Source: Escherichia coli (GTDB lineage Bacteria > Pseudomonadota > Gammaproteobacteria > Enterobacterales > Enterobacteriaceae). Taken from it: a stretch of 64,000 bases of DNA. The translations under genes were made by a program, and so were the position numbers. A model generated the notes under the pieces. That model was not told the DNA's origin. It searched no databases and worked only from the letters and a program-made list of their open reading frames with translations. Of the stretch, positions 8,619-16,179 are shown one piece after another. The stretch is taken from assembly GCF_003334765.1 (NCBI RefSeq), contig NZ_QOWT01000003.1. One strand, written 5' to 3'. Each line of letters starts with the position of its first letter. Position 1 is the first letter of the stretch.

Positions 8619-9809
8619 TTATTTCACGCGTTCTTGCGCTTCTTTCAGCAGTTGCTCGAGCAGTGCACCTGGTTTGGCGTATTTACGGGACAGGATCATC
8701 GCGGCGATGATATAAGGCTTCCAGCTGGCTTCTTTGTAGGTAGCGATACGGTATTTTTCGAATACGCCTTCAGTCACTTCACCTTCTTTACAGGATACGC
8801 CGCTGATATCAGCTGGCAGGCAGTGCATGTACAGGGCTTCGCCATCACGGGTCAGTTCCATCATCTCTTCAGTACAATGCCAGTCTTTGTGTTGCGCGTT
8901 CTGTGCCAGACACTGTTTTTCCAGTGCTTTTAAGCCTTCGTGATCGTTCGCACGCAGCAATTCAGTACGCTCTTCCATCACTTTGTAAGGTGCCCATGAC
9001 TTCGGATAAACGATGTCTGCGTCTTTGAAGGCTTCTTCCATGCTGGTGACCTGACGGAAGCTACCACCGGAGGCTTTAGCATTGTTTTTCGCCACTTCAA
9101 CCACATCCGGGATCAGGTCGTAGCCTTCCGGATGGGCCAGGGTGACATCCATACCGAAGCGAGTCATCAGACCGATGATGCCTTGTGGTACAGAGAGCGG
9201 TTTGCCATAGCTTGGAGAGTAGGCCCAGGTCATGGCGATTTTTTTACCTTTCAGGTTTTCCAGTGAACCAAAGTGTTCACGTAACCACGCGAGGTCAGCC
9301 ATTGACTGAGTCGGGTGGTCAATATCGCATTGCAGGTTCACTAAAGCCGGACGCTGTGGCAGTACACCCTGCTTGTAACCGTCATCAAGTGCAGCGCCAA
9401 CTTCACGCATATAGGCGTTGCCTGCGCCCAGATACATATCGTCGCGAATACCAATAGCGTCGGCGCAGAAGGAGATCATATTGGCGGTTTCACGCACGGT
9501 TTCGCCGTGAGCGATTTGTGATTTGCCTTCGTCGAGATCTTGTTGTGCAAGGCCGAGCAGGTTAAGCGCGGAAGCATAAGAGAAGCGGGTACGGGTGGAG
9601 TTGTCGCGGAATACGGAAATACCTAATCCACTATTAAAGACTTTGGTTGAGATGTTTTCAGCACGCAGTGCTTTTAATGCTGCGGCAACGTCCAGTACTT
9701 GTTTCAGTTCATCTGGCGTCTGTTCCCACGTTAACAAAAAATCTTTCTCGTGAAGGTGAGAGGTCAGCGAATTGATATCCTTAATCAGCTCATTAACAGT
9801 TTTCATCAT
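8619..9809 (-). CDS. ygeW: YgeW, transcarbamylase-family protein of uncertain substrate
   Basis: 396-aa ORF; aspartate/ornithine carbamoyltransferase fold family by sequence pattern; first gene of a co-directional five-gene cluster. Confidence 0.9.
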   Translation of the reverse strand: MMKTVNELIKDINSLTSHLHEKDFLLTWEQTPDELKQVLDVAAALKALRAENISTKVFNSGLGISVFRDNSTRTRFSYASALNLLGLAQQDLDEGKSQIAHGETVRETANMISFCADAIGIRDDMYLGAGNAYMREVGAALDDGYKQGVLPQRPALVNLQCDIDHPTQSMADLAWLREHFGSLENLKGKKIAMTWAYSPSYGKPLSVPQGIIGLMTRFGMDVTLAHPEGYDLIPDVVEVAKNNAKASGGSFRQVTSMEEAFKDADIVYPKSWAPYKVMEERTELLRANDHEGLKALEKQCLAQNAQHKDWHCTEEMMELTRDGEALYMHCLPADISGVSCKEGEVTEGVFEKYRIATYKEASWKPYIIAAMILSRKYAKPGALLEQLLKEAQERVK

Positions 9810-10284
9810 AAAGTCCCGGTAGTGGAATGACAGGCAAAGTGGTTTATTTCACTGTGACTTGCCAAAGTGATTGGTGTTTTCACAGCTATACCTGGGACTA
9901 ACAATAAGTGTGCCAGAATTATCCGCGCGGCTGCAAAAGACTAATTTGACGGATAATGTGTGGGGTTGATCACAAATTGATGCCAGCTTCTGGTTGTTTG
10001 TAAAATACGAAAACGTTTGGCTTTTTTTATCGCGTTATTTATTTGCTGCTAAGTATCAGAAATAAGATAAAGGGGCAGGCTATCTCTCTTCAGTTTGATA
10101 AACTCACCGCCGTAATTCTCATATTGATATAGAAATGTGATATCTCTTCCATAATTTCATTAGAAAATGATAAAAATCTTATGTTTTTATCAAAGCCAAT
10201 TTCGCCTGAGTTAATATCATCATGATCTGTGAACCATCAACGTCTTCAATGATCGACTTTTAAGTAAGTCTGGAAGGTAAAGCT

Positions 10285-12063
10285 ATGGAGCTTGCTACTA
10301 CGCAGTCAGTATTGATGCAAATTCAACCGACAATTCAGCGTTTTGCCAGAATGCTTGCCAGCGTTTTGCAGCTTGAGGTTGAGATCGTTGATGAAAACTT
10401 GTGTCGCGTTGCCGGAACGGGCGCGTATGGGAAGTTTCTTGGTCGCCAGTTGAGCGGCAACTCACGCCTGCTCCGCCACGTCCTGGAAACGAAAACTGAA
10501 AAAGTTGTGACACAGTCTCGCTTCGATCCCCTTTGCGAAGGTTGCGATAGTAAAGAAAATTGCCGCGAAAAAGCATTTCTGGGTACGCCTGTCATTTTAC
10601 AGGATCGTTGTGTTGGGGTGATAAGTTTGATTGCCGTTACCCACGAGCAACAAGAGCATATCAGTGATAATTTACGCGAATTTTCTGATTATGTTCGCCA
10701 TATATCCACCATTTTTGTTTCGAAACTTCTGGAGGATCAGGGGCCAGGAGATAACATCAGTAAAATATTTGCGACCATGATCGATAATATGGATCAGGGC
10801 GTATTAGTTGTAGATGATGAAAATCGGGTTCAGTTTGTTAATCAGACTGCCTTAAAAACACTTGGTGTTGTGCAAAATAATATTATTGGGAAACCTATCC
10901 GTTTCAGACCATTAACATTTGAGAGTAATTTTACCCATGGACATATGCAGCATATTGTTTCATGGGACGATAAAAGTGAATTAATCATTGGTCAATTGCA
11001 TAACATTCAGGGCCGACAATTATTTTTAATGGCGTTTCACCAATCGCATACCAGTTTTTCTGTAGCAAATGCACCTGATGAACCGCATATTGAACAATTG
11101 GTTGGCGAGTGCCGTGTTATGCGGCAATTAAAACGACTCATTAGCCGTATTGCACCCAGCCCATCCAGCGTTATGGTGGTTGGTGAAAGCGGCACGGGTA
11201 AAGAAGTCGTCGCCCGTGCAATCCATAAGTTGAGCGGAAGACGGAATAAACCCTTTATTGCTATCAACTGTGCCGCGATTCCGGAGCAGCTTCTGGAGAG
11301 CGAACTGTTCGGTTATGTTAAAGGTGCATTTACTGGCGCTTCTGCCAACGGTAAAACAGGGTTGATTCAGGCGGCGAATACGGGCACGCTGTTTCTCGAT
11401 GAAATAGGTGATATGCCATTAATGTTGCAGGCTAAATTACTGCGCGCTATTGAGGCACGTGAAATTCTGCCGATTGGTGCCAGTAGCCCAATACAAGTCG
11501 ACATTCGCATCATTTCTGCAACTAATCAGAATTTGGCCCAGTTCATTGCCGAAGGTAAATTCCGCGAAGATCTCTTCTACCGACTTAATGTTATCCCGAT
11601 AACTCTGCCACCGCTGCGTGAACGTCAGGAAGATATTGAACTATTGGTGCATTACTTTTTACATCTGCATACCCGTCGTCTGGGATCGGTTTATCCTGGC
11701 ATTGCTCCCGATGTCGTCGAAATATTGCGTAAGCATCGTTGGCCCGGAAACCTGCGCGAGTTAAGCAATTTGATGGAATATCTGGTTAACGTGGTTCCTT
11801 CAGGTGAAGTTATCGACAGCACGCTATTGCCGCCAAATCTGCTGAATAATGGCACAACGGAGCAAAGTGATGTAACAGAGGTCAGTGAGGCGCACCTGTC
11901 ACTCGATGATGCGGGCGGCACGGCGCTGGAGGAGATGGAAAAGCAAATGATCCGCGAGGCGCTTTCACGTCATAACAGCAAGAAGCAAGTTGCTGATGAA
12001 CTGGGCATCGGCATTGCTACGCTCTATCGCAAGATTAAGAAATATGAGTTGTTAAACACATAA
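10285..12063 (+). CDS. ygeV: sigma54-dependent transcriptional activator YgeV
   Basis: 592-aa ORF; AAA+ sigma54-interaction domain (GESGTGKE Walker A, ESELFGY motif) and C-terminal HTH; N-terminal sensory domain. Confidence 0.93.
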   Translation: MELATTQSVLMQIQPTIQRFARMLASVLQLEVEIVDENLCRVAGTGAYGKFLGRQLSGNSRLLRHVLETKTEKVVTQSRFDPLCEGCDSKENCREKAFLGTPVILQDRCVGVISLIAVTHEQQEHISDNLREFSDYVRHISTIFVSKLLEDQGPGDNISKIFATMIDNMDQGVLVVDDENRVQFVNQTALKTLGVVQNNIIGKPIRFRPLTFESNFTHGHMQHIVSWDDKSELIIGQLHNIQGRQLFLMAFHQSHTSFSVANAPDEPHIEQLVGECRVMRQLKRLISRIAPSPSSVMVVGESGTGKEVVARAIHKLSGRRNKPFIAINCAAIPEQLLESELFGYVKGAFTGASANGKTGLIQAANTGTLFLDEIGDMPLMLQAKLLRAIEAREILPIGASSPIQVDIRIISATNQNLAQFIAEGKFREDLFYRLNVIPITLPPLRERQEDIELLVHYFLHLHTRRLGSVYPGIAPDVVEILRKHRWPGNLRELSNLMEYLVNVVPSGEVIDSTLLPPNLLNNGTTEQSDVTEVSEAHLSLDDAGGTALEEMEKQMIREALSRHNSKKQVADELGIGIATLYRKIKKYELLNT

Positions 12064-15820: not shown

Positions 15821-15837
15821 GGCAAGATTTACGCCAG
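15821..15837 (-). promoter_or_regulatory. candidate sigma54 (-24/-12) promoter for xdhABC
   Basis: Minus strand reads cTGGCGTaaatcTTGCc: GG and GC separated by 10 nt as in the TGGCAC-N5-TTGC consensus; about 95 nt upstream of the xdhA start; ygeV (sigma54 activator) is adjacent. Confidence 0.5.
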
Positions 15838-16179
15838 AAACGACGATAAGCGTTAGGGGAGGTAGGAAGTGTGATGACGTTAAAAAAACACAGATATGAT
15901 ACGAAACAGGACTCTGAATAGGGGCAGTGATACGTATCAATATGAGTGGCGATAAAATCAATGTGATAAATTGGGATTATTACGCATCAGGATGGGAAAT
16001 AGGGTAAAAAGTCAGGAAGTTCGATACCTCTACAGCGAATATTTTGCTGATGATACTTCCCTTTGCCAAATGAAATTAACCTCTTTCTCTATTACCACGT
16101 TTTTCCAGAAGCAAGAGATTGGGTATCAAGAGGCTGGCTGCTATGATAAGGCGTCTTGTTTTTTAAGCGAGGAAAGATT

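Follow-up and report, generated by a model that had tools for sequence, protein, structure and literature searches.

A probable sigma-54 promoter, with a conserved departure from consensus at -12, for the ygeW operon of Escherichia coli

Our analysis indicates, with high probability, that positions 9900-9916 hold the sigma-54 (RpoN) promoter of the ygeW-ygeX-ygeY-hyuA-yqeA operon, part of the anaerobic uric-acid degradation cluster, acting through the mechanism involving YgeV and CRP that is proposed below. The promoter itself is already known and mechanistically ordinary, while the comparative detail is partly new. All positions refer to the window, the whole 64,000-nucleotide stretch of DNA that was analyzed. 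This window belongs to the E. coli chromosome, as its segment 9400-10700 matches 5,190 of 5,426 complete E. coli genomes at 95-100% identity. Since 60878-60894 (minus strand, CTGGAACAGTTTTCGCT) matches the published intragenic antisense sigma-54 site IA22 in recC, the window stretches from the ygfK promoter as far as the recC region. Another published site, IS34, located within yqeC and driving yqeB, is expected in the yqeC open reading frame at 1014-1784. In E. coli strain M15 (NZ_CP185789.1), the match to 9400-10700 comes in two pieces, with an IS5-like IS903B between them.

The ygeW gene encodes a knotted carbamoyltransferase and occupies 8619..9809 on the minus strand, as assigned from its open reading frame and the flanking annotation in E. 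coli genomes. It is the first gene of a minus-strand run, ygeW-ygeX-ygeY-hyuA-yqeA, which extends down to 3678 with gaps of 40-57 nt; the names past ygeW were taken from the K-12 gene order and from papers on the uric-acid pathway. According to two such papers (PMC12507026; bioRxiv 10.1101/2022.07.24.501321), the genes of the operon correspond to steps of reductive uric-acid degradation. The initial annotation had placed ygeV divergently adjacent to ygeW, and this arrangement was confirmed by a plus-strand open reading frame at 10285..12063 that is annotated as a sigma-54 interaction domain protein in 5,190 E. coli genomes. Pfam domains in YgeV comprise PAS (162-206), Sigma54_activat (272-439), an AAA lid (445-528), and HTH_8 (548-587), in addition to a weak GAF match. 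Carrying the Sigma54_activat and HTH_8 domains, YgeV is therefore expected to bind DNA upstream. Previous studies tie this protein to the pathway: ygeV was reported as necessary for uric-acid consumption (Iwadate and Kato 2019, as cited in bioRxiv 10.1101/2022.07.24.501321), and xdhABC, ygeWXY, ygfK, and ygfT form a single expression module attributed to YgeV (Lamoureux et al. 2023, PMC10602906). PMC12507026 further reports that glucose represses the uric-acid pathway, and that the ygeV/ygeW spacer was swapped for constitutive promoters by one group.

The core promoter is readily visible in the sequence. Read from 9915 to 9900 on the minus strand, the DNA is TGGCAC-ACTTA-TTGTT, exactly as initially described, and a preceding C completes the 17-mer CTGGCACACTTATTGTT at 9916..9900, which lies 90 nt from the ygeW ATG. 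The GG at -25/-24 (9914/9913), the full TGGCAC, the spacing, and the TTG with its G at -13 (9902) all follow the pattern TGGCAC-N5-TTGCW, and the single departure is a T in place of the consensus C of the GC at -12 (9901). The element is directed at ygeW, and transcription is predicted to start at 9889, 12 nt downstream of the -12 base, leaving a 5' untranslated region of 80 nt before the ATG at 9809. The rule that places the start 19 nt beyond the motif centre and the distance of 80 listed for this site (both from PMC4591121) point to the same position, 9889.

To be sure, the string alone is not significant window-wide: the loose pattern TGGCAC-N5-TTGNW has one match in the 64 kb against 0.37 expected, and 29 of 100 shuffled sequences contained at least one. 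A position weight matrix was more discriminating. We built it from 38 intergenic E. coli sigma-54 ChIP-seq motifs (Bonocora et al. 2015), excluding the four that belong to this cluster. When the intergenic region was scored in this way, as the initial annotation had proposed, CTGGCACACTTATTGTT came out at the top of all 127,968 positions on both strands, with 15.7 bits (training median 16.7; iid P = 2e-6), a score above that of 13 of the 38 training sites. About 0.001 matches scoring this high are expected on the ygeW strand of the ygeV/ygeW spacer. The rank depends in part on two psp promoters of the GT type that the matrix includes, since removing them lowers the score to 13.4 bits and the rank to 3. 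The initial annotation had considered the site a candidate, though weak, sigma-54 promoter. The candidate was upheld by ChIP-seq site OS30, the genomic SELEX peak, the matrix scan, and the 41-species comparison, all detailed below, whereas the word "weak" understates a site that outscores every other sigma-54 match in the window and whose GT is conserved and recurs in pspA and pspG. The matrix also matched, at 14-15 bits, ATGGCACAGTGGCTGCA (60640-60656, plus strand) and CTGGCACAGAACGCGCA (8893-8909, minus strand, within ygeW), both outside the 135 high-stringency ChIP-seq sites of Bonocora et al.

RNA polymerase with sigma-54 is known to bind this element in vivo (PMC4591121) and in vitro (PMC8743547). 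The in vivo evidence is the OS30 row in Table 1 of Bonocora et al. (2015, PLoS Genet, PMC4591121), which lists a peak at 3004190 with a fold above threshold of 3, the motif CTGGCACACTTATTGTT, the plus strand, the gene ygeW, and a distance of 80, and carries no EcoCyc flag. OS30 and the element described here are one object: they agree in the 17-mer, in the orientation, and in a start predicted 80 nt ahead of ygeW. The in vitro evidence comes from genomic SELEX, in which reconstituted RpoN holoenzyme gave a peak of 53-55% relative intensity within the ygeV/ygeW spacer (Shimada et al. 2021, PMC8743547). In addition, a sigma-54 promoter ahead of b2870/ygeW was predicted by Francke et al. 2011 (PMC3162934), and sigma-54 promoters upstream of xdhABC and ygeWXY are credited to Reitzer and Schneider 2001 by Lamoureux et al. 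(PMC10602906). Bonocora et al. stressed that a binding site is not necessarily a promoter, and the occupancy at ygeW was low, 3-fold above threshold compared with 11-201 for many classical promoters (PMC4591121). That study is confined to binding at OS30 and addresses neither the departure at -12 and its conservation nor the upstream sites. In the literature searched, we found neither a mapped 5' end for ygeW nor data on its mRNA level in rpoN or ygeV mutants.

The element is conserved well beyond E. coli. A protein-guided scan with one genome per species listed 80 of 591 ygeW relatives, and in 41 of these 80 loci, the best sigma-54 matrix match within the 450 nt before ygeW was the -24/-12 element, scoring 12.9-17.0 bits and located 65-110 nt from the ATG (with a single exception at 228 nt). 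These 41 loci represent Escherichia, Citrobacter, Klebsiella, Enterobacter, Edwardsiella, Hafnia, Morganella, Serratia, Erwinia, Aeromonas, and Photobacterium, and also take in betaproteobacterial or Rhodocyclaceae metagenome-assembled genomes. A YgeV homologue adjoins ygeW in most of them. Among the other listed loci, the element was absent from the distant, non-proteobacterial ygeW relatives, including those of Bacteroidetes, Riflebacteria, and Verrucomicrobia. When 20 Enterobacterales spacers were aligned with MAFFT, TGGCAY-N2-TTATTGTT formed a patch of identity surrounded by diverged sequence.

The comparison also bears on the unusual -12 base. The initial annotation had called the GC at -12 near-invariant, a fair description given that this position is C in 35 of the 38 training sites and in about 125 of the 135 ChIP-seq sites (our own count over Tables 1 and 2 of PMC4591121). 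Across the 41 listed ygeW loci, by contrast, the base is T in 21, A in 14, G in 6, and C in none, while the TTG before it and the T/A after it are kept. The sister promoters xdhA, ygfK, and ygfT retain GC. Such an absence of C across orthologues is suggestive of selection against it and, the species being related, does not amount to statistical proof. Since the oddity is conserved across dozens of species, it does not mark a weak or decaying site; the comparison shows GT at -12 to be an old, maintained state. Promoters lacking this C form about 7% of the 135 ChIP-seq sites, and they include the EcoCyc-confirmed pspA (TTGGCACGCAAATTGTA) and pspG (TTGGCATGATTCTTGTA) promoters, which, like ygeW, pair a canonical -24 TGGCA(C/T) with TTGT instead of TTGC (PMC4591121). 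They differ from ygeW in the A (rather than T) that follows, giving TTGTA, in belonging to another regulon, and in their activator, PspF, which has no sensory domain. Moreover, pspA and pspG depend on IHF, instead of a CRP-like site as at ygeW. By analogy with these promoters, T at -12 would permit normal activator-dependent function. The grip of the RpoN domain on the -24 element dominates closed-complex formation, and the -12 contacts serve as a regulatory centre that blocks melting (PMC5095919); a site that is bound through a perfect -24 despite an altered -12 fits this description. We speculate that the T may tune the stability of the closed complex or the basal leak.

Further upstream, the strongest conserved block of the 20-spacer alignment lies on the minus strand at about 10087-10143 and reads ATCACAtTT-N3-TATCAAtaTGAtAAT ... 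TTTATCA-N3-TG, its core being the palindrome TTATCA-N3-TGATAA. We propose this palindrome as a candidate YgeV enhancer. By alignment and palindrome scan, E. coli has a candidate site at 10087..10101 (TTATCAAACTGAAGA on the minus strand, centred about -205), and a second one at 10116..10130 (ATATCAATATGAGAA on the minus strand, centred about -234), which is the E. coli version of TTATCA-N3-TGATAA. Adjoining the latter is a conserved minus-strand half-site block, ATATCACATTTCTAT (10129..10143), in which ATCACAtTT is invariant or nearly so across the 20 species, and which may represent a third enhancer half-site. At -205 to -247, these candidate sites are unusually distant.

When up to two mismatches are allowed, 39 of the 41 listed loci have the palindrome 155-245 nt upstream of the -24 element; one of the two loci without a match has just 80 nt of upstream sequence. 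Its density is 3.5 per kb in this zone compared with 0.08 per kb in the rest of the loci, a 42-fold difference, and the matches elsewhere are mostly in conserved coding sequence within ygeW and ygeX. The 64-kb window contains 18 matches against 4.2 expected, four of which are upstream of three sigma-54 promoters: the two at ygeW, one at ygfK (268-282, a perfect match), and one at xdhA (15955-15969), the latter two 125-175 nt upstream of their promoters. As the palindrome resembles AT-rich motifs such as Fur-like GATAAT hexamers, its assignment to YgeV draws on co-occurrence only. Papers that mention ygeV, among the literature searched, contain no description of it. Taken jointly, the propositions that the missing C is a selected, ancient feature of ygeW and that TTATCA-N3-TGATAA is the YgeV enhancer make a possible but, in our estimate, somewhat doubtful reading. 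Closer to ygeV, 10190-10245 holds two more conserved blocks, ATGATAnTAAC and TTGATAAAAA (in ygeW-sense orientation), which may be the ygeV promoter or an autoregulatory site.

Between the candidate enhancer and the core promoter lies a CRP-like site, TGTGATCAACCCCACA (9959..9974), with one mismatch to TGTGA-N6-TCACA and centred about -77.5 from the predicted start. This block is conserved in 20 of the 20 aligned Enterobacterales spacers. The window contains seven such sites against 2.0 expected, among them a perfect TGTGA-N6-TCACA at ygfK (163-178, about -97.5), two helical turns further than that of ygeW. A native Crp site in the ygeV/ygeW spacer is also mentioned in PMC12507026. Inspection by eye revealed no match to the IHF pattern WATCAA-N4-TTR between enhancer and promoter. 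A second TGGCA at about 9975-9985 (GCTGGCATCAATTTGTGATC) was dismissed as a promoter, given its wrong -12 spacing and its overlap with the CRP-like site. A PurR-box-like palindrome also resides between the enhancer block and the CRP-like site (10007-10022, minus strand AGCCAAACGTTTTCGT, core AAACGTTT). We did not retain it as a candidate, as its core is no commoner than chance in the window; in the 20-spacer alignment, only Escherichia, Citrobacter, Atlantibacter, and Trabulsiella preserve it.

An Rfam search of 9700-10400, covering spacer and leader, gave no match at E <= 1, and the E. coli leader folds no better than its shuffles (z = -0.7), which led us to reject a riboswitch or known leader RNA. 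A hairpin at 9853-9886 (minus strand) has a closing stem, GCUG(UG)...(CA)CAGC, that is conserved in 15 species, its interior not being conserved, and RNAalifold recovered just the 4-bp closing stem GCUG...CAGC, with one compensatory change and little covariation. A long-range pairing of AGTCCCAGG with CCGGGACT that would sequester the ribosome-binding site was likewise discarded: its 5' arm is upstream of the predicted start and therefore outside the RNA. Immediately ahead of the ygeW start codon, Enterobacteriaceae share a nearly invariant block, GCCnGTCATTC(C)ACnACCAGGA (9812-9836, minus strand GCCTGTCATTCCACTACCGGGAC), which contains a Shine-Dalgarno-like AGGA, while the remaining leader diverges.

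We propose the following mechanism for this promoter. Sigma-54 polymerase would wait at the element as a closed complex, anchored chiefly by the perfect -24 TGGCAC. YgeV, encoded divergently, would bind sites of the TTATCA-N3-TGATAA type about 205-245 bp upstream, and DNA looping would bring it to the polymerase, probably aided by a CRP-induced bend at about -77, with CRP conveying catabolite control. YgeV would then spend ATP to open the promoter, and transcription would proceed from near 9889 through ygeW-ygeX-ygeY-hyuA-yqeA.

The main alternative, to which we assign a small but real chance, is that sigma-54 holoenzyme binds here and never fires (a silent or "parking" site), and that ygeW is transcribed from another, CRP-dependent sigma-70 promoter in the spacer. 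The low ChIP occupancy would suit a silent site, as would the conserved CRP-like site at 9959-9974 combined with the glucose repression of the pathway mentioned above, and, in E. coli, a GATAAT hexamer (9923-9918, minus strand) that abuts the -24 box. However, this hexamer has no -35 partner and is conserved no further than Escherichia and Citrobacter, and the CRP-like site would sit near -55 of a start driven by it, a non-standard activating position. A sigma-70 scan of 9700-10400 yielded two 9-of-12 matches, no more than shuffled sequences did, and the -10 of the one on the ygeW strand overlaps the start codon; we consequently rejected a sigma-70 promoter for ygeW. The -24/-12 element, on the other hand, is conserved in three gammaproteobacterial orders and in betaproteobacteria, at a fixed distance from ygeW and beside a sigma-54 activator gene. 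Such deep conservation at a fixed distance argues for function and therefore makes a silent site unlikely.

A different possibility is that the sigma-54 promoter does function but YgeV is not its activator, or not the sole one; another enhancer-binding protein, for instance, could act from solution or from other sites. The literature searched held no direct data on YgeV binding to DNA or on ygeW expression in relation to YgeV, and YgeV has also been tied to the regulation of indole and LEE (PMC9426417). Nevertheless, ygeV lies next to ygeW in nearly all element-bearing proteobacterial loci, ygeWXY belong to the YgeV expression module (PMC10602906), uric-acid degradation is impaired in ygeV mutants (Iwadate and Kato 2019, as conveyed by a paper citing it), and the same palindrome precedes three sigma-54 promoters of the cluster. 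In light of this gene linkage and co-expression module, an activator other than YgeV is unlikely. That the element fits a loose pattern by mere coincidence, in a spacer rich in AT, and has no biological role is barely credible. The missing near-invariant C and the pattern counts given above, with nearly a third of shuffles positive, would allow for it, but the published ChIP-seq and genomic SELEX experiments show binding and thereby refute this reading (PMC4591121, PMC8743547). The matrix rank of 1 and the conservation in 41 listed species amid diverged flanks speak against it as well.

A sigma-54 promoter of the ygeW operon activated by YgeV would have several relatives, near and far. Like ygeW, prpR-prpBCDE pairs a catabolic operon with a divergent gene for an enhancer-binding protein and adds catabolite control to a sigma-54 promoter. 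It differs in the activator family, the sensor domain, and the pathway, and the role of CRP at ygeW is deduced solely from the conserved site. Within the window, the sigma-54 promoters of xdhA (15821-15837) and ygfK (84-100), both on the minus strand and both taken from the table of PMC4591121, share with ygeW the gene cluster, the YgeV expression module, and an upstream TTATCA-N3-TGATAA-like palindrome, and ygfK has a CRP-like site as well. Unlike ygeW, xdhA and ygfK keep GC at -12 and deviate at -24 (TGGCGT and TGGTGC, respectively), and their candidate enhancers are nearer to the core element. Further away, the DioR regulon of Clostridiales similarly places ygeW-ygfK-ssnA-ygeY, dpaL, and xdh-type genes under sigma-54 and a dedicated activator, though in Firmicutes, by computational reconstruction, and with an enhancer motif of its own (PMC6615313).

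The literature searched contained no description of a conserved C-less -12 or of the layout of candidate YgeV enhancer and CRP site. We regard the C-less -12, the candidate YgeV enhancer, and the CRP-like sites at -77.5 (ygeW) and -97.5 (ygfK) as useful leads that hold no great surprise. Gut bacteria degrade uric acid by a reductive pathway that was solved recently and is being engineered for gout probiotics, and the ygeW operon is part of this pathway. Native control by a sigma-54 promoter, together with a remote enhancer and a CRP-like site, would explain why the pathway stays silent when cells are cultured ordinarily and why glucose represses it. If the selected -12 and the YgeV enhancer both hold true, ygeW would join the psp promoters in a "-12 without C" subclass, in which an altered fork-junction contact sets the basal leak or the demand for activator, and the YgeV regulon that controls uric-acid degradation in the gut would become mappable by sequence.
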